From Gammaproteobacteria bacterium (lineage in GTDB: Bacteria; Pseudomonadota; Gammaproteobacteria; CAJXQU01): DNA of 64,000 nucleotides. The notes beneath the pieces were generated by a model. It had not been told where the DNA came from and ran no database searches. It saw nothing but the letters and a program-made list of their open reading frames with translations. The stretch lies in contig CBDEGZ010000003.1 in NCBI GenBank assembly GCA_965238175.1, positions 96,001 to 160,000 on the forward strand, in the 5' to 3' direction. Made by a program: the position numbers and the translations under genes. Of this stretch, positions 20,742 to 33,521 are shown piece by piece (position 1 is the first letter of the stretch; the number at the start of each line of letters is the position of its first letter).

Positions 20742-20882
20742 GCTGTGTTTTTATAATTAAAGGAAATTATTTAGGCCTATAGAACAGTTAGTTAACCTGA
20801 TGTGATGGTCTCCTCCCCCTAACGGCATCTAGGTGCCATGATTGAACTGACATACACACAATCAAAAGAGGAGAAGACCAAA

Positions 20883-21896
20883 ATGAAGACTACAACAATC
20901 GGGTTAGACATAGCAAAAAACGTATTTCATGCTGTCTGCTGTAATCAACAAGGGCGTATAATCAAAAAGAAAATGTTAAAGCGAGCGCAGGTACTCTCCT
21001 TTTTTCAATCTCAACCTCCTTGTTTAGTCGCAATAGAATCTTGTGCAACGTCACAGTATTGGGCCCGAGCGATACAACAACAGGGACATCAGGTGAAATT
21101 ACTACCACCTCAGCATGTTAACGCATTTCTAATCGGCAATAAGAATGATTATAACGATGCCTTGGCCATCGCCGTTGCTGCGAAACAACCTCATTTAAAA
21201 AGTGTGGGCATTAAATCAGTTGAGCAACAAGACAACCAGGCACAACATAAAGCAAGAGACTTAGCGGTCAGACAAAGAACCGCATTATGTAACCAAATGA
21301 GAGCGCTTGTTGCAGAATATGGCATTAGCCTTCGTCCCGGCCTAAATACCCTACGTCAATCTATCCCGTTGCTATTAAGTGATGAGAACGAACGGTTGTC
21401 CGTTACTTTCAAAAGGATACTGCGCCAGCTAAAGGAACAATGGCAATCACTTGATGCCTGTATTGCGACATTTGACCAATTGATCATTCAATCGGCAAAA
21501 AACAATGCGATTTGCCAACGCTTACAAACTATTCCAGGGTTTGGGCCGATGGTCTCGAGCGCGTATTTTAATGAAGTGGGAAACGGCGCTCATTATCACA
21601 AAGGGCGCGATGTGTCCGCCTCATTAGGACTTGTTCCACGACAGTACAGTAGTGGTGGTAAAGAGGTGCTACTGGGGATCAGTAAACGCGGCAATAAATA
21701 CCTTCGTTGTTTGTTAATTCTAGGCGCGAAGGCCGTGGTATCAAGAGCCAAAACGAAAGGCGATAAACTGAGTCAATGGATTAATCGTTTAGTTGAGACG
21801 CGGGGGCATAATCGAGCGTGTGTGGCGTATGCCAACAAAATGGCAAGAATGGCCTGGGCTATAACGGTTTCTGGTGATGACTACTCACCGGCCTAA
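20883..21896 (+). CDS. IS110-family DEDD recombinase/transposase
   Basis: IGLDIAK, IES, KNDYNDA (RuvC-like DEDD) and PRQYSSGG (catalytic Ser region); start at MKTTT after GAGGAG. Confidence 0.95.
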   Translation: MKTTTIGLDIAKNVFHAVCCNQQGRIIKKKMLKRAQVLSFFQSQPPCLVAIESCATSQYWARAIQQQGHQVKLLPPQHVNAFLIGNKNDYNDALAIAVAAKQPHLKSVGIKSVEQQDNQAQHKARDLAVRQRTALCNQMRALVAEYGISLRPGLNTLRQSIPLLLSDENERLSVTFKRILRQLKEQWQSLDACIATFDQLIIQSAKNNAICQRLQTIPGFGPMVSSAYFNEVGNGAHYHKGRDVSASLGLVPRQYSSGGKEVLLGISKRGNKYLRCLLILGAKAVVSRAKTKGDKLSQWINRLVETRGHNRACVAYANKMARMAWAITVSGDDYSPA

Positions 21897-22142
21897 ATAG
21901 AGAGAACAAATCATTTCAACGAATTGCGAAGGTAAAACTAAAGATGGCATAACAGGTCAAACCAGCCTATTGAAAACCTGTCGAGCTCAGGGGTAACTAA
22001 TACCGATAACCTGATAAGGAAAATAGGCGCGTAATACATCCAGGTCAGAAGTTGAAAACTTCATTGAAGGCCGTATATATGACAGCAATCCTGTCCCTGT
22101 TATCTGAATGTTTTATCTTGCAATACGGGAGGAGACCATATA
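21897..22142 (+). ncRNA. Predicted bridge/seekRNA of IS1111-type element, copy 1
   Basis: Outer stem ATAACAGG/CCTGTTAT; stem GCCTATT/AATAGGC enclosing target-matching CGAGCTCAGG and TAACCTGA; donor-matching ACATC and ATATATGA flank hairpin GAAGTT/AACTTC. RNA ends are not determined. Confidence 0.75.
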
Positions 22143-22152
22143 TGAGATCGGT

Positions 22153-23052
22153 TTAAGCCACGGTTGCTAATGCCCGTTTTAAGTAATTAAATTCATCGCC
22201 AGACAAGTTCAAAGACGGCTTATTCTCTTTCAGACAATAAGCGATCAATCCACCGATAAGATTAAGCATAAAACCATGTACAGAGCGGTGTCTGGAATGT
22301 TCTATCTGAGTAATGTTCTTCAACTGGTCATTAATGGTTTCAATAATAAAACGTCTGCTCAGCATGGCTCTGTCCCAGAGCGATGTAGCTTTTGCCTTCA
22401 TGTTTTTTCGAACATTTGTCACCAACTCCACGCCTTTATCAAACAATTCGCTCGATAAGGCTTGGCTGATATAGCCCTTATCCCCGTAAAGTTTGCCACT
22501 CATCGCCTTGCACAGCTCGGGAACAGGCTGACGGTCATCGATATTTCCCGGGGTGATTTTGGCTGCCAGGATATCCCCCTGATGATTGGTGATAAGGTGT
22601 AACTTGAAACCATAAAACCAACCCATTGTGCCTCGACCTCGCTGGGCGATGTCTTTGAAAACACGGTGGCGTGGAATACGGAGGTTGTGGCACACTTTTA
22701 AGGCGGTTGAATCAACAAACGCAACACCTGTGGGTTTCCCTTTAAGATAAGAAAAGTAGCTACATAAAGGAACGAGCACTGTCGGCATCACCTCCAGAAA
22801 CCGCGTGTAGCTTAGCATCTGTGGAAAATCCTCGGCATAGAATTGAGCGATAAACCCTTTGTAGTAGTTCTTGAAATCGCGATGGTTGGAGTGATGAAAC
22901 AGGATGATGATAGTCATGATTTCGCTGGCTTGCATTCGCCCAACTCGACGGCGTTTGCGTTGCCCATCGGTCAGTAATTGTTGTTCCCACAACGGTATGA
23001 AGTGCTGACAGAAGTCATCGACATCACAAAAGATTTCAACTAGTTTATCCAT
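22153..23052 (-). CDS. IS982-family DDE transposase
   Basis: EIFCDVDDF start, FVDST, GWFYGFKLH, GDKGYIS, RFIIETINDQLKN, IEHSRHRS. Confidence 0.93.
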   Translation of the reverse strand: MDKLVEIFCDVDDFCQHFIPLWEQQLLTDGQRKRRRVGRMQASEIMTIIILFHHSNHRDFKNYYKGFIAQFYAEDFPQMLSYTRFLEVMPTVLVPLCSYFSYLKGKPTGVAFVDSTALKVCHNLRIPRHRVFKDIAQRGRGTMGWFYGFKLHLITNHQGDILAAKITPGNIDDRQPVPELCKAMSGKLYGDKGYISQALSSELFDKGVELVTNVRKNMKAKATSLWDRAMLSRRFIIETINDQLKNITQIEHSRHRSVHGFMLNLIGGLIAYCLKENKPSLNLSGDEFNYLKRALATVA

Positions 23053-23143
23053 TGGCTTGTTCTCCTTTTTTTTCAATTGTTTGGTCACAATTGATCTGAT
23101 CGGGGGACAAGCCGTTAGTTCATTTCCTTAAGCCGAGTTGGGG

Positions 23144-23863
23144 TTAGTTACGATATTTTTCTTTGTCTTCCAGTCTTCTTTGGTGTCGCAGATTAACTCC
23201 GTGGATAAGATAGATCACATATTCGGCGATATTTCCTGCATGTGCTCCTAGCCTTTCAAGTGATTTCAACATTAACGTGATGTTGATCGAATGTCCGAGG
23301 TTTCTCGCATCTTCAAGTACAAAGGTTGTTAAATGCCTTAAAGATGATTGAAATTCAGCATCAAGCTCCTGATCAGCATTGAGTAAAGATTTTGCTAATT
23401 TTGAATCTAATTGATCAAAAGCAGTTAGTGCGGTTTCTAATAATTCCAATGACAATCTGCCCATTACAGAAATATCACGCAATTGGTTTTTTGCAGGCTT
23501 CGGTTGATTAGCATCTGAAAGTGACTCAATAATGTGTGCGATTCGAGCTGCTTCGTCACCAATTCTTTCAAGATCGACAACGATCCTGGAGAATGCCATC
23601 GTAATCCGCAGATCTTTGGAGACTGGACCACGTTTGTTAATGAGATCAATTATCTTATTATCAATAGCAACTTCCATGGAATCGACTTCCGGCTCTCTTT
23701 CCAAAACCAGTTTGGCCGCTTTTTCATCCTGTTCGAGCAATGCTTGAAGCGCGAGTCGACTTTGATCTAAAGCCAAGCCGCCCATTTCAAGTATTTGTAA
23801 GTGCAGATTATTCAAGTCACCATCAAAGCGCTGATCGGCATGTCCTTCTAGTGGTTGATTCAT
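23144..23863 (-). CDS. phoU: PhoU (copy 2)
   Basis: MGGLALDQ, DLERIGDEA, LERLGAHAGNIAE; last gene of pst2 operon. Confidence 0.9.
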   Translation of the reverse strand: MNQPLEGHADQRFDGDLNNLHLQILEMGGLALDQSRLALQALLEQDEKAAKLVLEREPEVDSMEVAIDNKIIDLINKRGPVSKDLRITMAFSRIVVDLERIGDEAARIAHIIESLSDANQPKPAKNQLRDISVMGRLSLELLETALTAFDQLDSKLAKSLLNADQELDAEFQSSLRHLTTFVLEDARNLGHSINITLMLKSLERLGAHAGNIAEYVIYLIHGVNLRHQRRLEDKEKYRN

Positions 23864-24803: not shown

Positions 24804-26126
24804 CTACCAGCGACGTTCAAATTTTCTTCTTAGAAGTACGGCCAAAGCATTCATTAAGATCAGAAATCCTAATAAAACCATAATCGCGGCGGATGTTTTT
24901 TCAGTAAAAGCGCGTTCTGGACTGTCAGCCCATAGATAAATTTGAACTGGCAAAACGGTTGATGGATCAAAAGCGCCGCCTGGAATATCAACAATAAACG
25001 CAACCATACCGATCATCAAAAGTGGTGCAGATTCTCCTAAAGCTTGCGCCATACCAATGATAGTGCCTGTCAACATGCCCGGCATTGCTAATGGTAAAAC
25101 ATGATAGAAAATGGCTTGCAAAGGCGAGGCACCAACACCCAAAGCTGCTTCTTTGATTGAAGGTGGAACTGATTTCAGTGCTGCACGGCTGGAAATAATA
25201 ATGGTGGGTAGTGTCATTAATGTCAGTACTAATCCACCAACAAAAGGAGCCGATCTTGGAAGACCGAAGAAATTGATAAATACAGCCAGCCCTAACAAAC
25301 CGAAAACAATAGAAGGCACCGCTGCCAGGTTGTTTATGTTGACCTCTATAATGTCGGTTAGTCGGTTTTTGGCTGCAAACTCTTCTAAATAAATCGCCGC
25401 TGCAACGCCAATCGGAAACGACAAAAGCAATGTCACTAACAAGGTATAAATAGAGCCAACAATAGCTCCTCGAATACCTGCAAGTTCCGGATTGCGTGAA
25501 TCTCCATTAGTAAAAAAGATCGTATTAAAACGCTTTTCTATTCGATCTTGTTCTACCAATTTATCGACCCAGCCAATCTGATTGTCTTTGACGCGCCGAT
25601 CATCTTCGGGTAATAAGCGATCAATATGCCCTTTAATCAACATATCGATCTCATCATCAGCAGGTACCCAGAGATCAAATTTCTGATCAATTAAACCAGA
25701 ATCATTTTTGATCATTCTCTCAAGTTGAAAGGCAGCGTCTTGACTAACCAGACCATTCAATTTCCGTTTGTCACGGCGCCCATTAACATTAGGAAACATT
25801 TTACGCAAACTGGATTTTACAATACCTGCGTAGTTTGCTGAGGCGATTGCTTCTGCTGTTCGATTAGAGTTGGCCAATTCAGACTCCGTAAGATCAATTT
25901 CAATGCTGATGTAAGTCTGCTGAAAAGCACCATAGCCTTTACTAATAATACTGGTGAAAAGTAACACCAGAAAAAGTACACCTAAGAAAATTGCAGACTT
26001 CCCGAGAAACTGGAATCGTTTTTCAGCACGTTTTCGTTTCTTCATACCAGCATTCACCACCTCCATGGGGGTTTTTCTTGTGGGTACGTCGTTATCTTCT
26101 ATCGAAGAATTAATTTGATTATTCAT
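24804..26126 (-). CDS. pstA: PstA (copy 2, DUF3333-type N-terminus)
   Basis: [35 protein letters not shown]. Confidence 0.93.
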
Positions 26127-27489
26127 ATTGTTCCCGGTATTTACGCACGATGTGTAGTGCTATAACGTTGAGAATGAGTGTGATCACAAAAAGTGCTAAA
26201 CCCAATGCGAATGCCGCGAGAGTCTTAGCGCTATCGAATTCTTGATCACCCGTTAATAAGGTCACGATTTGAACGGTTACCGTTGTAACAGCGTCGAGTG
26301 GATTAGCCGTCAGGTTTGCAGCAAGCCCGGCTGCCATAACCACGATCATCGTTTCACCAATGGCTCGTGATACAGCAAGTAAAATGCCCCCAACAATTCC
26401 TGGCAATGCGGCTGGGAAAATGACCTTGCGAATGGTTTCAGACTTAGTAGCACCTAATCCATACGCACCATCTCGCATGGCTTGAGGAACTGCGTTTATC
26501 ACATCATCTGATAAGGATGAAACTAATGGGATAATCATAATACCCATCACTAAACCTGCAGCTAATGCACTTTCTGAGGCGACATCAAAACCTATATTTG
26601 TACCCAAGTTCCGAATGAAAGGTGCTACGACCAGTGCTGCAAAAAAACCATATACAACAGTTGGTATGCCTGCCAGAATTTCAAGCAATGGTTTTGTAAT
26701 TGTTCGAACTCTTTCTGATGCATATTCGGAAAGATAAATCGCAGACATTAAGCCAATAGGAACGGCAACGAACATTGCAATGAACGAGATCAAAAGCGTG
26801 CCGGTAAAAAGAGGTATCGCGCCGAAGCTACCACTTGAACCAACCTGATCTTCACGTATTGCCGTTTGAGGACTCCACTCTAGACCAAAGAGAAAGTCAC
26901 TGGCAGGGATCATGTTAAAAAAACGTAAAGACTCAAATAAAACCGAAAGTACGATTCCTAACGTAGTTAAAATGGCAATGCTGGAACAAAGGATCAAAAA
27001 TGCTTTTACTAACCATTCGACAACATTCCTTGCTCGAAATTGCGGGTGTATTTTTCTTAGTGCAACAAGACTTAACACTATTGCACCAGAAAGTGCTAGT
27101 ACGGTAAGAATAACGTGACTGGTACTTTGTAGACTCTTATAACGGTCTGCAGCTACCTGTAAGCTTGTATTAACCTCACCGGAAGTGACATTTCCCGCCA
27201 CAAGATTTTTAATATCGTTCACAACAAGGTTAAGATTTTCTGAATTGGCCGTTGGTAATTCTGAAACAACAATATTGGTGATAATGCCAGGCTCAAATAT
27301 CATCCATCCCGCAGCTAGTAAGAGTGCCGGCAAACCGCACCACACTGCGGTGAAAAAACCGTAGTAATTGGGTAAAGAGTGTAAATTGCGAACCTTTCCT
27401 TGCACCACGCTTAGGGCACGACTACGACCTAGAAAAAAGGCACAGGAACTCAGTAGTAATAGAATGATCGCAAGAATTGAAACTTGCAT
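26119..27489 (-). CDS. pstC: PstC (copy 2, DUF3708-type N-terminus)
   Basis: LHSLPNYYG, EILAGIPTVVYG, SRAIGETMIV. Confidence 0.93.
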   Translation of the reverse strand: MQVSILAIILLLLSSCAFFLGRSRALSVVQGKVRNLHSLPNYYGFFTAVWCGLPALLLAAGWMIFEPGIITNIVVSELPTANSENLNLVVNDIKNLVAGNVTSGEVNTSLQVAADRYKSLQSTSHVILTVLALSGAIVLSLVALRKIHPQFRARNVVEWLVKAFLILCSSIAILTTLGIVLSVLFESLRFFNMIPASDFLFGLEWSPQTAIREDQVGSSGSFGAIPLFTGTLLISFIAMFVAVPIGLMSAIYLSEYASERVRTITKPLLEILAGIPTVVYGFFAALVVAPFIRNLGTNIGFDVASESALAAGLVMGIMIIPLVSSLSDDVINAVPQAMRDGAYGLGATKSETIRKVIFPAALPGIVGGILLAVSRAIGETMIVVMAAGLAANLTANPLDAVTTVTVQIVTLLTGDQEFDSAKTLAAFALGLALFVITLILNVIALHIVRKYREQYE

Positions 27490-27770
27490 TTGTGTCTCCT
27501 CCCGAATGGGAATTTGCAGCTTTTAATTTCGTTCATAAGCTACTTAAAATTATGTTGTTTTACTTAACCTGAACTCGGGATAAGAAATATCCATCCAGCC
27601 GATTTCTTTTAGCGCCTCTGTGCGTTGGAGTTGTTTCCAATAGCCCGCTATTGCTACGCAACTCCGCCTTAATAGCCACTAAAAGAAGTCCACTGGACAA
27701 AGCAGTCACAGCGATTTCATCTAACTCATTGTCTTTTAATGTTTTTATGGCCATTCTTATCCCGAGTTCA

Positions 27771-28016
27771 TATATGGTCTCCTCCCGTATTGCAAGATAA
27801 AACATTCAGATAACAGGGACAGGATTGCTGTCATATATACGGCCTTCAATGAAGTTTTCAACTTCTGACCTGGATGTATTACGCGCCTATTTTCCTTATC
27901 AGGTTATCGGTATTAGTTACCCCTGAGCTCGACAGGTTTTCAATAGGCTGGTTTGACCTGTTATGCCATCTTTAGTTTTACCTTCGCAATTCGTTGAAAT
28001 GATTTGTTCTCTCTAT
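27771..28016 (-). ncRNA. Predicted bridge/seekRNA, copy 2
   Basis: Reverse complement of 21897-22142. Confidence 0.75.
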
Positions 28017-29030
28017 TTAGGCCGGTGAGTAGTCATCACCAGAAACCGTTATAGCCCAGGCCATTCTTGCCATTTTGTTGGCATACGCCACACACGCTCG
28101 ATTATGCCCCCGCGTCTCAACTAAACGATTAATCCATTGACTCAGTTTATCGCCTTTCGTTTTGGCTCTTGATACCACGGCCTTCGCGCCTAGAATTAAC
28201 AAACAACGAAGGTATTTATTGCCGCGTTTACTGATCCCCAGTAGCACCTCTTTACCACCACTACTGTACTGTCGTGGAACAAGTCCTAATGAGGCGGACA
28301 CATCGCGCCCTTTGTGATAATGAGCGCCGTTTCCCACTTCATTAAAATACGCGCTCGAGACCATCGGCCCAAACCCTGGAATAGTTTGTAAGCGTTGGCA
28401 AATCGCATTGTTTTTTGCCGATTGAATGATCAATTGGTCAAATGTCGCAATACAGGCATCAAGTGATTGCCATTGTTCCTTTAGCTGGCGCAGTATCCTT
28501 TTGAAAGTAACGGACAACCGTTCGTTCTCATCACTTAATAGCAACGGGATAGATTGACGTAGGGTATTTAGGCCGGGACGAAGGCTAATGCCATATTCTG
28601 CAACAAGCGCTCTCATTTGGTTACATAATGCGGTTCTTTGTCTGACCGCTAAGTCTCTTGCTTTATGTTGTGCCTGGTTGTCTTGTTGCTCAACTGATTT
28701 AATGCCCACACTTTTTAAATGAGGTTGTTTCGCAGCAACGGCGATGGCCAAGGCATCGTTATAATCATTCTTATTGCCGATTAGAAATGCGTTAACATGC
28801 TGAGGTGGTAGTAATTTCACCTGATGTCCCTGTTGTTGTATCGCTCGGGCCCAATACTGTGACGTTGCACAAGATTCTATTGCGACTAAACAAGGAGGTT
28901 GAGATTGAAAAAAGGAGAGTACCTGCGCTCGCTTTAACATTTTCTTTTTGATTATACGCCCTTGTTGATTACAGCAGACAGCATGAAATACGTTTTTTGC
29001 TATGTCTAACCCGATTGTTGTAGTCTTCAT
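28017..29030 (-). CDS. IS110-family DEDD recombinase/transposase
   Basis: Translation identical to 20883..21896. Confidence 0.95.
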   Translation of the reverse strand: MKTTTIGLDIAKNVFHAVCCNQQGRIIKKKMLKRAQVLSFFQSQPPCLVAIESCATSQYWARAIQQQGHQVKLLPPQHVNAFLIGNKNDYNDALAIAVAAKQPHLKSVGIKSVEQQDNQAQHKARDLAVRQRTALCNQMRALVAEYGISLRPGLNTLRQSIPLLLSDENERLSVTFKRILRQLKEQWQSLDACIATFDQLIIQSAKNNAICQRLQTIPGFGPMVSSAYFNEVGNGAHYHKGRDVSASLGLVPRQYSSGGKEVLLGISKRGNKYLRCLLILGAKAVVSRAKTKGDKLSQWINRLVETRGHNRACVAYANKMARMAWAITVSGDDYSPA

Positions 29031-29127
29031 TTTGGTCTTCTCCTCTTTTGATTGTGTGTATGTCAGTTCAATCATGGCACCTAGATGCCGTTAGGGGGAG
29101 GAGACCATCACATCAGGTTACTTAGAG

Positions 29128-29160
29128 AAAAAAGGGGGGAAATAAAATTCTTTCACCCCC
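29128..29160 (-). terminator. Terminator-like hairpin after pstS2
   Basis: Minus strand GGGGGTGAAA...TTTCCCCCC followed by T6. Confidence 0.6.
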
Positions 29161-29225
29161 AAGACCGTTTCTCAATAAGAGGGAGTTATCTCCCTTCTTC
29201 AAACATCCTTGTTTTCTATTTCTAC

Positions 29226-30320
29226 TTAAAGAGATAAGGGTTTTAGCTCTTTTGCATCAGATGTGAACTGTGCACGCTCTGTTTGCGGCATGGGGATAAG
29301 GCCACGATCAGAAAGATATCCATCGTCGCCATAAGCCTTATCGCTTGTGAACTCAGAGAGATACTCATCCATACCTGGAATTACGCCAACATGTGCTTTT
29401 TTTACATAGAAGAAAAGAGGACGTGAAATTGGATAAGTGCCGTCAGAAATAGTTTCGAACTTAGGTTCAATGCCGTTGACGACTGAGCCACGAACTTTGT
29501 CGAGATTTTCATCAAGGAAACTAAATCCAAAGACACCTAATGCTTTTGGATTTGAATCCAATTTTTGCACGATCAGGTTATCGTTCTCGCCGGCTTCTAC
29601 ATATGCACCATCTTCACGAATTGTATGGCAAATACTTTTGTATTTAGATTTCAATTTTTTAGCAAGTACCCTGTCGCCGCCTTTTTTCGCAGCTTTTGAA
29701 GCCTTTTTGATCTGTTTTATCCAGTCAAACGTTTTACAACCACCTTCCATTGCTAGTTCAGCAAAGGCATCACGAGTGCCTGATGTAGGTGGAGGACCTA
29801 ACACTTCGATATCAATTGCTGGCAATTTCGAATTTACTTCATTCCATTTCTTATAAGGATTTACAACTAATTTTTCACCACCTGCAGGTTCAGGAATTTC
29901 TTTTGCCAGAGCCAGGAAAATATCACGAGTGGTTAGTTCCATTGGAACGCCTTTCTTTGAATTAGCAACTGCGATTCCGTCATAACCAATCTTAACTTCG
30001 ATAATGTCTTTTACACCGTTTTTTTGACACATATCGAATTCAGATTTTTTAATCCTGCGTGATGCATTTGTGATATCAGGATGTTCAACACCAACACCAG
30101 CACAAAATAATTTCAAACCACCACCAGAACCTGTTGATTCAACTTTTGGTGTTTTGAAATTGGTGCTTTTTCCAAATTGTTCAGCAACAACTGTTGCAAA
30201 AGGGTAGACCGTTGAAGAGCCAACGATACTAATATAATCACGAGCAGCGATAGCATAGGCTGCACCTGCAACAACGGCTGTTGCCAGTACACTGCTTAGT
30301 AAAACACTTTTTTTAAACAT
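29226..30320 (-). CDS. pstS: PstS (copy 2)
   Basis: RDYISIVGSSTVYPF, ESTGSGGG, GPPPTSGTRDAF, EAGENDNLIV, YPISRPLFFY; start at MFKKS after GAGGAG. Confidence 0.94.
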   Translation of the reverse strand: MFKKSVLLSSVLATAVVAGAAYAIAARDYISIVGSSTVYPFATVVAEQFGKSTNFKTPKVESTGSGGGLKLFCAGVGVEHPDITNASRRIKKSEFDMCQKNGVKDIIEVKIGYDGIAVANSKKGVPMELTTRDIFLALAKEIPEPAGGEKLVVNPYKKWNEVNSKLPAIDIEVLGPPPTSGTRDAFAELAMEGGCKTFDWIKQIKKASKAAKKGGDRVLAKKLKSKYKSICHTIREDGAYVEAGENDNLIVQKLDSNPKALGVFGFSFLDENLDKVRGSVVNGIEPKFETISDGTYPISRPLFFYVKKAHVGVIPGMDEYLSEFTSDKAYGDDGYLSDRGLIPMPQTERAQFTSDAKELKPLSL

Positions 30321-30441
30321 GTCATACTCCTCTGTCAGGGGCAATAAAAATTTTTAGATAGAGGAGACGTCAATAAGTAGTTATTGTTTATATCACAGTA
30401 GCAATTGTGTTCGTCTCCTACACACACCCTCGCACATGGGC

Positions 30442-32295: not shown

Positions 32296-33521
32296 TGTAG
32301 AAGTTTAGACCCAATCTGACACATCACTAAATCAAGCGGAGCGTAGCGACGCTTGATTTAGTGAGAGTTACCCGCTTTGATGTAACTGCAACGTAAACAT
32401 CAAAACACAAAGAGGTAACTCTCATGATTCATACTAATGACAAAGTTATAAAACATAAAGTTGGTCTACTCAATCTCGCTGAAGAACTCGGCAATGTCTC
32501 AAAAGCCTGCAAGATGATGGGTTTGTCCAGAGATACATTTTATCGCTACAAAGAAGCGGCTGATGAAGGCGGTGTAGAAGCCTTGTTTGATCGTAATCGG
32601 CGTACCCCAAATCTTAAAAACAGAATCGACCCGGCTATTGAAACCGTTGTGCTCGAGTATGCACTGGAAGAGCCCGCACATGGTCAAACGCGCACCAGTA
32701 ACGAGCTGCGCAAACGGGGAACATTTGTCTCACCCAGTGGCGTTCGTTGTATCTGGCTTCGTCATGGTCTTGCTTGCTTTAAAGATCGCCTGAAGGCATT
32801 GTCTGATAAGGTAGCTGGTGAAGGCTTGATCCTCACTGAGTCTCAAGTCGCGGCGATGGAACGCAAGAAAGACGACGATGAGGCTTGTGGCGAGATAGAG
32901 ACGGCACACCCTGGTTATCTTGGCTCGCAAGATACTTACTATGTCGGTACTTTCAAAGGCATTGGTCGGGTTTATCAACAAACGTTTGTTGATACTTACA
33001 GCAAGGTCGCTCACGCGAAACTGTACCCGACTAAAACACCGATTACGGCAGCTGACATGCTCAATGACCGCGTCCTCCCATTCTACGAACAACAACGTTT
33101 GCCTATGTTGCGCATTTTGACAGATAGAGGGACGGAGTATTGTGGGCGAGCTGACCAGCATGATTATCAGCTTTATATGGCGTTGAACAATATCGAACAC
33201 ACCAAAACCAAGGTCAAATCACCTCAGACGAATGGTATTTGTGAGCGATTCCATAAGACGATCCTCAATGAGTTTTATCAAGTCGCTTTGCGTAAGAAAA
33301 TTTACCAATCGATTGATGAACTGCAACTCGACCTTGACGAATGGTTGCTCAAATACAATACTCAACGAACTCACCAAGGCAAAATGTGCTGCGGGAGGAC
33401 GCCGATGGAAACACTCATCGACGGACAAGCTATCTGGAAGGAAAAGTTTGTGAATTAAACTTAACCTGACAGTCGGTTACTGATAATTGGGTAACTGTCA
33501 GATCAAATCTGAATTTCTACA
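32296..33521 (+). mobile_element. IS481-family element, copy 1 (1226 bp)
   Basis: TGTAGAA...TTCTACA termini shared with copy 2; flanks are not duplicated. Confidence 0.9.
32424..33458 (+). CDS. IS481-family transposase
   Basis: N-terminal HTH (NVSKACKMMGLSRDTFYR); rve DDE core (SQDT, LTDRGTEY, PQTNGICERFH). Confidence 0.93.
   Translation: MIHTNDKVIKHKVGLLNLAEELGNVSKACKMMGLSRDTFYRYKEAADEGGVEALFDRNRRTPNLKNRIDPAIETVVLEYALEEPAHGQTRTSNELRKRGTFVSPSGVRCIWLRHGLACFKDRLKALSDKVAGEGLILTESQVAAMERKKDDDEACGEIETAHPGYLGSQDTYYVGTFKGIGRVYQQTFVDTYSKVAHAKLYPTKTPITAADMLNDRVLPFYEQQRLPMLRILTDRGTEYCGRADQHDYQLYMALNNIEHTKTKVKSPQTNGICERFHKTILNEFYQVALRKKIYQSIDELQLDLDEWLLKYNTQRTHQGKMCCGRTPMETLIDGQAIWKEKFVN

Follow-up and report, generated by a model that had tools for sequence, protein, structure and literature searches.

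The 64,000-nucleotide (nt) stretch of gammaproteobacterial DNA considered here (contig CBDEGZ010000003.1, positions 96,001 to 160,000; hereafter, the window) carries, between a pstS-like and a pstC-like gene, two mobile elements nested one within the other. The favoured reading, to which we give a probability of about 0.88, is that this structure results from two stacked transpositions into the pstS–pstC spacer, in which a miniature inverted-repeat transposable element (MITE) of the IS982 type would have entered first and an RNA-guided insertion sequence (IS) of the IS1111 type would have entered the tip of this MITE later. This reading is carried by the anatomy of the locus, the copy numbers of the elements in the genome, the constant register in which the IS is found, and the observed covariation between its presumed guide segments and the flanking sequences among relatives.

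Anatomy and kinship of the split MITE

The layout at 27561-29124 consists of a first copy of the hexamer TACTTA, a 207-bp MITE split by the IS, and a second copy of TACTTA (Table 1). The IS interrupts the right end of the MITE between ...GAGTTCA and GGT, three bases from the tip. Excising 27771-29115 (1345 bp) leaves 207 bp with perfect 20-bp terminal inverted repeats and a 6-bp direct repeat, the exact reverse complement of ACCTGAACTCGGGATAAGAA being formed by 27754-27770 joined to 29116-29118, and this right repeat is unbroken in the IS-free copies of the family. The only open reading frame over the MITE (27560-27805, 81 amino acids) begins within the IS and has no Pfam match. Moreover, a repeat search finds a hairpin inside the MITE with 24-nt arms at 27594-27617 and 27674-27697. 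Its DNA fold reaches −34.9 kcal/mol (z = −6.26), none of 200 shuffled sequences being as stable, and compensatory changes occur at 12 of the 60 predicted pairs among 12 copies from two species. An earlier note, made from the letters of this DNA, had described a non-coding 207-bp MITE with perfect 20-bp ends, a TACTTA duplication and three nested hairpin arms; every one of these features is present in the locus, and both the fold and the compensatory changes agree with the arms.

The insert is assigned to the IS1111 group of the IS110 family on the presence of defining group features. For this group, the relevant part of PMC11187229 describes subterminal inverted repeats of 11–13 bp, terminal extensions of 7 nt on the left and 3 nt on the right, and a GL-P----S(T)G motif in the C-terminal domain of the recombinase. 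In the window copy, 13-bp subterminal repeats lie at 27774-27786 and 29096-29108, and the GLVPRQYSSG found at residue 264 fits the motif. The recombinase scores 302.6 bits on NF033542 (cut-off 140) and matches PF01548 and PF02371, and the non-coding flanks of its gene measure 246 nt downstream vs 40 nt upstream. Because TCA is present on both sides, the boundary of the IS slides by 3 nt, and it was placed to give the IS1111-typical 7-nt and 3-nt terminal extensions.

The MITE is not single-copy. BLAST finds nine near-full copies in this genome at 84–100% identity, plus fragments. One of six congeners (G003), a sister species, has 13 copies or more, at about 82% identity. Both ends are kept in seven of the nine copies, the other two being truncated at the right end, and five of the seven complete copies have perfect 6-bp duplications (TACTTA, TAGTTA, TAGTTA, TAAATA, and TAGTAA). 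The TAnTTA pattern read earlier from the two duplications of the window thus fits TACTTA and TAGTTA and is not general. In G003, nine complete IS-free copies have a contiguous ...GAGTTCAGGT tip, four of them with perfect 6-bp duplications and two more with a match at five of six bases. At loci L028-L036 and L012 of this congener, at least nine complete IS-free MITE copies have perfect GAGTTCAGGTTA-type sites, and its own related IS, with a guide for the GAATTC variant, is seen once, at a contig end. Since the G003 assembly consists of 480 contigs, occupied MITE copies may be unassembled there.

Terminal repeats of the IS982 family start with AC, and its target duplications are short. The MITE end agrees at 21 of 21 nt with the left repeat of element B, an intact member of the IS982 family elsewhere in the genome, whose 337-codon open frame is 87% identical to the IS982 transposase of the window (311 amino acids, 279 bits on NF033520, cut-off 130). 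The full-length IS982 copy of the window also duplicates 6 bp, namely TAGTTA. By its ends and duplications, the 207-bp element is classed as a MITE of the IS982 type, as the earlier note had it. The likeness is confined to the 21-nt end, the only part in common with the autonomous IS982-family element; beyond the ends, the interior of the MITE showed no homology to either of the two IS982 subtypes of the genome. This interior, which resembles no IS982 copy, and the conserved internal hairpin would also suit a repeat that is similar to a repetitive extragenic palindrome (REP) or belongs to another MITE family, with ends that merely resemble those of IS982. Such an origin is nevertheless very improbable given the 21/21 end match to an intact element in the same genome and the resemblance of the 6-bp TA...A duplications of the MITE to those of full-length IS982 copies; moreover, the related IS is hosted in Paraglaciecola and Pseudoalteromonas by a 240-bp MITE and a 1014-bp IS982 element, whose ends and duplications are of the same kind.

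Guide segments and target choice of the inserted element

A structured guide RNA (seekRNA or bridge RNA) is predicted in the 3' non-coding region of the IS, with two segments, T and B, that match opposite strands of the target and a third that matches the donor (Table 1). Segment B lies 15 bases beyond segment T on the recombinase strand, so that T is 5' of B, and their target matches overlap; the same order and overlap on the target are described for IS1111-type seekRNAs in part of PMC11187229. For a second donor segment, complementary to the left end of the IS, only a 5-nt match was found. In an RNAalifold consensus of 35 sequences, 31 pairs are predicted, 19 of them with compensatory changes, and T and B flank a small hairpin, the whole lying in a loop that CCU/AGG closes. 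These guide loops appear in the alignment-based fold and are missed by the single-sequence minimum-free-energy fold of the 3' region.

Covariation with the flanking DNA is the strongest argument for a guide function. A scan of named genomes confirmed 472 relatives of the IS, the best 80 of which were analysed. Of these, 63 have a BLAST match reaching the right end of the IS (17 were dropped) and, together with the window copy, they provide 64 loci with 49 distinct guide pairs. Segment T was scored against the reverse complement of the eight right-flank bases, and the first five bases of segment B against the five left-flank bases. T matches the right flank at a mean of 6.65 of 8 positions (n = 48), compared with a mean of 3.29 and a maximum of 4.06 in 2000 shuffled pairings, while B matches the left flank at a mean of 4.56 of 5 (n = 36), compared with a shuffled mean of 1.58 and maximum of 2.44. 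A few of the low match values come from alignments shifted by one base. At the first base of the crossover core (T or C), the flank, segment B and the donor segment AUAUA(U/C)G are in agreement for 57 of the 59 distinct sequences. In the congener G003, the related IS, 84% identical in the guide region, sits at CCCGAATTCA/ (here and below, a slash marks the joint) and has CCGAAUUCAG as its segment T, guide and site having changed together. This covariation across 48 and 36 relatives indicates RNA-guided targeting. Thus, the RNA-guided nature that the earlier note attributed to the element is supported, and we infer that the RNA is produced and used.

The genome contains 25 copies of the IS: 22 identical full copies, two at 99.9% with one difference each, and one truncated at the start of a contig. 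The right flank begins with GGTT in all 25 and the left flank ends with TCA in all 24 that have one, and the fifth base of the right flank is A in 23 of 24. In every one of the 24 copies with both flanks, target and orientation are the same and there is no duplication beyond the shared TCA core. Fourteen copies sit in repeats that differ from the MITE end by at most five mismatches, two in the ACCTGAGATCGG... repeat of two identical IS982 copies, four in truncated tips of 7-8 nt (three of which adjoin a high-copy IS481-family element), and four elsewhere, one of these inside an IS481-family copy. Six of the seven complete MITE copies are occupied, always in the same register, as are several fragments; in the sole complete copy left empty, one tip has mutated to GAGTTTAGGT. 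These counts bear out the view that the MITE family supplies landing sites. The same register in a different repeat variant, also proposed earlier, is found at 20798-22142, where the same IS lies inside the IS982 copy 20795-23144, 3 nt from its ACCTGAGATCGG... tip. The opposite, left end of the MITE at 27567-27770 (27567-27586) itself matches the guide at 7/8 positions, with GGTTA next on the other strand, and carries no IS. The IS is never found at both ends of one 207-bp MITE, in numbers too small to read a meaning into single occupancy, and it is present at each end of one MITE remnant that an IS481-family copy has split.

Occupancy was graded by the number of T matches, of eight, at the 220 TCA/GGTTA sites of the genome, and it climbs with this number: one of 107 sites is occupied at three matches, one of 61 at four, five of 23 at five, seven of 16 at six, and nine of 12 at seven, the single site with eight being empty. 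Sites with at least seven T matches but without GGTTA are empty, save one GGTTT site. This pattern indicates that both halves of the target, the T match and the GGTTA side, are needed. The good sites of the genome are close to saturated (9/12 at seven matches). The nested structure also makes plain why the IS is found, in most of its 25 copies, at the termini of transposons of another family.

The IS481-family element that adjoins several tips is about 1226 bp long, has TGTAGAA... ends and encodes a 344-amino-acid protein (278 bits on NF033577); it is present in 59 copies genome-wide, one of them in the window (32296-33521). Each copy holds an internal CTG/TCAGGTTAAG site, and the IS1111-type element is present in only one of these roughly 59 sites. 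Three IS481-family copies (G000:C3, at about 945276, 1052809 and 2865990) have a common right junction in which ...TTCTACA is followed by GTTCAGGT, an 8-nt IS982 repeat tip; the usual duplication is absent from these three copies, and all three tips are IS1111-occupied.

Several observations weigh against the reading of a MITE entered by an RNA-guided IS. The guide is mismatched to its commonest target, with C facing A four bases to the left of the joint, and the single perfect T-match site of the genome (CGAGCTCA/GGTTA) is empty (0/1). Three of ten CGAGTTCA/GGTTA sites are also empty, including the left end of the MITE at 27567-27770, and four of 24 insertions lie outside recognisable IS982-type repeats, two of them with only three or four of eight T matches. 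An Rfam scan of 27400-29300 (E ≤ 1) gave no match, no curated family covering the predicted guide RNA. A matching duplication is absent from two of the seven complete MITE copies. Finally, searches with pstC-start DNA and with the PstS protein sequence located this operon in only one of six congeners, whose 185-bp spacer without the MITE shares only the pstC start with the window spacer (178 bp without the insert) and gives no alignment. In the only public sequencing run that contains the locus, which may be the source sample, no joint skips the IS or the MITE, an observation that speaks neither for nor against an empty site.

The empty perfect-match site lies 21 bp from an occupied site, within a small palindrome. 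This 39-bp palindromic structure (G000:C3:393933-393975) consists of TACTTA, a 20-nt IS982-type repeat, TTCAGGT and TAAGTA; the IS is in its short right tip, and the left site, the only perfect guide match, is empty.

The empty perfect site and the insertions with poor T matches would be accommodated by a recombinase that finds the repeat tip, or the hairpin-forming MITE, through protein–DNA contacts, the matches in the non-coding region being incidental. We regard this explanation as highly unlikely, since guide and flank covary across 48 and 36 relatives with unrelated targets, guide and site differ together in G003, and the RNA fold is kept through compensatory changes. Furthermore, according to the part of PMC11187229 that deals with this point, the requirement of this recombinase family for a seekRNA has been shown experimentally.

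Proposed order of events and setting in the pst region

In the favoured sequence of events, the 207-bp non-autonomous MITE would have entered the spacer at TACTTA, duplicating six bases; the transposase acting on it in trans would presumably have been that of an IS982-family element with the same end. Much later, the 1345-bp IS would have entered between ...GAGTTCA and GGT without duplication, supplying both the DEDD recombinase and a guide RNA from its 3' non-coding region. Segment CGAGCUCAGG would pair with the top strand of the repeat tip and segment UAACCUGA with the bottom strand across the tip, reaching the TA of the flanking duplication. The IS would therefore recognise an IS982-type tip starting with ACCTGA beside TA, and the TA next to the tip is constant because IS982-type elements here insert at TA...A sites. 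With such recognition, MITEs, full-length IS982 elements and remnants would all be targets, and the MITE family would multiply the landing sites. As MITE copies have diverged by up to 16% and the IS copies are identical, the burst of the IS is recent and the spread of the MITE old. The splitting of the repeat probably immobilises the host element.

If, instead, a MITE::IS or IS982::IS block had been copied as a unit, the common register would go back to one insertion that was then amplified. Identical 45-nt left flanks in three groups of IS copies (3, 3 and 2) and the occupation of both identical IS982 copies point in this direction. However, the right flanks differ in every IS copy, the occupied MITE copies differ by 2-16% from one another, yet 22 of 24 full IS copies are identical, and the occupied copies retain their own duplications. 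The hosts are also diverse: besides MITEs and truncated tips, they include unrelated sites and two subtypes of IS982 that differ in their repeat variant. Moreover, an IS982 transposase would hardly cut a repeat in which 1.3 kb separates the last 3 nt from the remainder. Joint travel is thus a shade less credible still than the alternatives considered above, and the differing hosts, right flanks and duplications bear out the earlier proposal that the second IS1111-type insertion in the window was a separate event in the same register. The least credible alternative of all, that the assembly misjoined the flanks of one of 25 near-identical 1.3-kb repeats and the MITE is a chimera, could appeal to the only public run holding the locus, whose contigs break at repeat borders with none spanning the whole stretch, but both sides complete one perfect 20-bp inverted repeat and carry the same TACTTA, IS-free copies align with the reconstructed element over its full length, and pstS and pstC are adjacent in the congener too.

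Table 1. Features of the nested insertion and its surroundings (window coordinates).
Feature	Position	Strand	Remarks
Full-length IS982-family element	20795-23144		1005 bp without insert; TAGTTA duplication; carries the same IS1111-type element
pstC-like permease gene	26119-27489	-	Downstream of the insertion; PF12501, PF00528
Left TACTTA copy of the 6-bp MITE target-site duplication	27561-27566		Sequence inspection
MITE left 20-bp terminal inverted repeat	27567-27586	+	ACCTGAACTCGGGATAAGAA; 21/21 identical to left repeat of IS982 element B
MITE, first 204 nt	27567-27770	+	Starts with ACCTGAACTCGGGATAAGAA, ends with TTCTTATCCCGAGTTCA
MITE internal long hairpin, conserved	27594-27697		Repeat search, fold, compensatory changes
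MITE split right terminal repeat, first 17 nt	27754-27770	+	TTCTTATCCCGAGTTCA
IS1111-type (IS110 family) insertion sequence	27771-29115	-	1345 bp
IS right end	27771-27786	-	3-nt extension ATA and 13-bp subterminal inverted repeat GGGAGGAGACCAT (minus-strand reading)
Structured guide RNA (seekRNA/bridge RNA) region, predicted	27819-27961	-	In 3' non-coding region; compensatory changes
Donor-matching segment, putative	27831-27838	-	AUAUAUGA; equals right end ATATA plus core TGA of joined IS ends
Guide segment B, putative	27899-27906	-	UAACCUGA; equals target top strand TA+ACC+TGA, so would pair with bottom strand
Guide segment T, putative	27922-27931	-	CGAGCUCAGG; complementary to target top strand CCTGAACTCG at 9/10 positions
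DEDD transposase gene	28017-29075	-	352-amino-acid open reading frame; family match from residue 20; GLVPRQYSSG at residue 264
IS left end	29096-29115	-	7-nt extension TGATGTG and 13-bp subterminal inverted repeat (minus-strand reading)
GGT, last 3 nt of MITE right terminal repeat	29116-29118	+	Severed by the IS
Right TACTTA copy of the duplication	29119-29124		First two bases TA belong to the sequence presumably read by guide segment B
pstS-like phosphate-binding protein gene	29226-30344	-	Upstream of the insertion; PF12849

The pstS–pstC spacer measures 1736 bp, of which the nested insert and one copy of the duplication account for 1558 bp (1.56 kb), leaving 178 bp. The remaining original spacer on the pstS side (29125-29225) holds two hairpins, one of them G/C-rich and followed by a T run (GGGGGTGAAAGAATTTTATTTCCCCCCTTTTTT, minus strand); the MITE insertion point lies directly after this hairpin and T run, and a simple terminator scan omitted the hairpin. 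In a scan of the region for promoters and terminators, the counts were close to those of shuffled sequence, and no effect on pst expression is claimed. As for the rest of the assembly, contigs C1 (10,967 bp, 55.8% GC) and C2 (8,481 bp, 43.9% GC) differ in composition from the chromosome (40.4% GC), and C1 may be foreign or a separate replicon.

Relatives in other genera and comparison with known systems

The closest recombinases among the best 80 relatives, with 67–78% protein identity, come from Colwellia, Halioglobus, Shewanella frigidimarina, Pseudoalteromonas and Paraglaciecola. The closest relatives in Colwellia, Pseudoalteromonas, Paraglaciecola and Shewanella sit in similar ACCTGA-type repeat tips, IS982 or MITE hosts having been shown for three of them. 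Four loci (L044, L046, L051 and L089) have TAACC to the left of the IS and TGA... followed by repeat-like sequence to its right, and a fifth (L042) has the TAACC left flank on a contig that stops 3 nt beyond the IS. The host at L089 is a 1014-bp IS982-family element with a TACATA duplication (267 bits on NF033520), and that at L051 is a 240-bp MITE with a TAAATA duplication. At L043 and L045, where both guide segments are changed, the host is an ACCTCAG... tip and the orientation of the IS is reversed, the insertion at L045 adjoining an IS982-family gene (214 bits). Three members of the same group (L047, L048 and L049) have targets unrelated to the IS982 tips of their kin. Two of these, L048 and L049, from Colwellia and gammaproteobacterial metagenome-assembled genomes (72–73% protein identity), have UAUACCCA guides and ...TGGGTATA sites (with the joint before TGGGTATA) that are unrelated to IS982, and by their guides and flanks they are apparently a case of natural retargeting inside the clade. 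Thus, the flanks of the relatives indicate that targeting of IS982 tips is common to several genera and not universal in the clade.

A wider proposal, which we consider tentative and somewhat doubtful, is that IS1111-type elements of this lineage live as specialised parasites on the IS982-family transposons of marine Gammaproteobacteria, tracking variants of the repeat through changes in the guide. Equally tentatively, such a parasite would read, through its guide, the extreme end of the IS982 repeat as well as the adjoining TA, which is set there by the target preference of IS982. If this were true, removal of the tip may immobilise each host copy, and the IS would act as a brake on IS982 elements and MITEs as well as a passenger. 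The locus bears in any case on the interaction between transposons, one element using and probably disabling another. Moreover, the genome provides a natural data set for RNA-guided target choice, with one guide set against 220 graded sites of known occupancy, and about 60 relatives with co-changing guides and targets, in two of which the orientation of insertion is reversed. Such data could inform off-target rules for bridge-RNA and seekRNA recombinases. A literature search that left aside ISfinder and the supplementary target tables of PMC11187229 and PMC11208160 found no paper on an IS1111-type element targeting IS982-family repeats.

The use of a MITE family as a landing pad is also known for the founding IS1111 element. 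As described in the part of Wachter et al. 2018 (PMC5896051) devoted to these elements, 20 of 21 IS1111 copies of Coxiella burnetii lie in QMITE2, and QMITE2 copies without IS1111 have served as markers of insertion time. According to the same account, the target in QMITE2 is a GTAG REP palindrome inside the MITE, whereas here it would comprise the last 8-10 nt of an IS982-type terminal repeat and two further nt from the flanking duplication. With a target made of the repeat tip and duplication bases, full-length IS982 copies are hit too. The MITE family, the parent IS and the host all differ between the two systems, as far as that description goes.

Insertion of elements of this kind into the terminal repeats of other transposons has reportedly been seen before. 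Muller et al. (2001) are said to have described the entry of IS1383 into the inverted repeats of IS1384 in Pseudomonas putida H, a case known here by its title, which resembles the present one in that an IS110/IS1111-type element is aimed at the terminal repeat of another IS, with a different target IS and host. Likewise, Partridge and Hall (2003) reportedly found IS4321 and IS5075 in the 38-bp terminal repeats of Tn21-family transposons. These elements, known here by citation, are also of the IS1111 family, with subterminal repeats and a single position and orientation in the repeat of another transposon; unlike the present system, their target is the end of a Tn3-family transposon, not of IS982, and no MITE family is involved.

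Guidance by RNA in the IS110/IS1111 family was shown in 2024, as set out in the main sections of Siddiquee et al. (PMC11187229) and Durrant et al. (PMC11208160). The predicted guide region described here resembles the seekRNA of ISEc11, ISKpn4 and ISPa11 and the bridge RNA of IS621, as these sections present them, in having, downstream of the recombinase gene, a segment that matches the top strand and then one that matches the bottom strand, with overlap between the two. Further likenesses are the separate donor-matching segment and the natural reprogramming among relatives. In contrast to those four elements, the present IS belongs to a different lineage and is known here from its sequence alone. 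It is thus a clear new example of a known behaviour and not a new mechanism, although the well-resolved relationship between guide and target and the pattern across genera may merit a short note.

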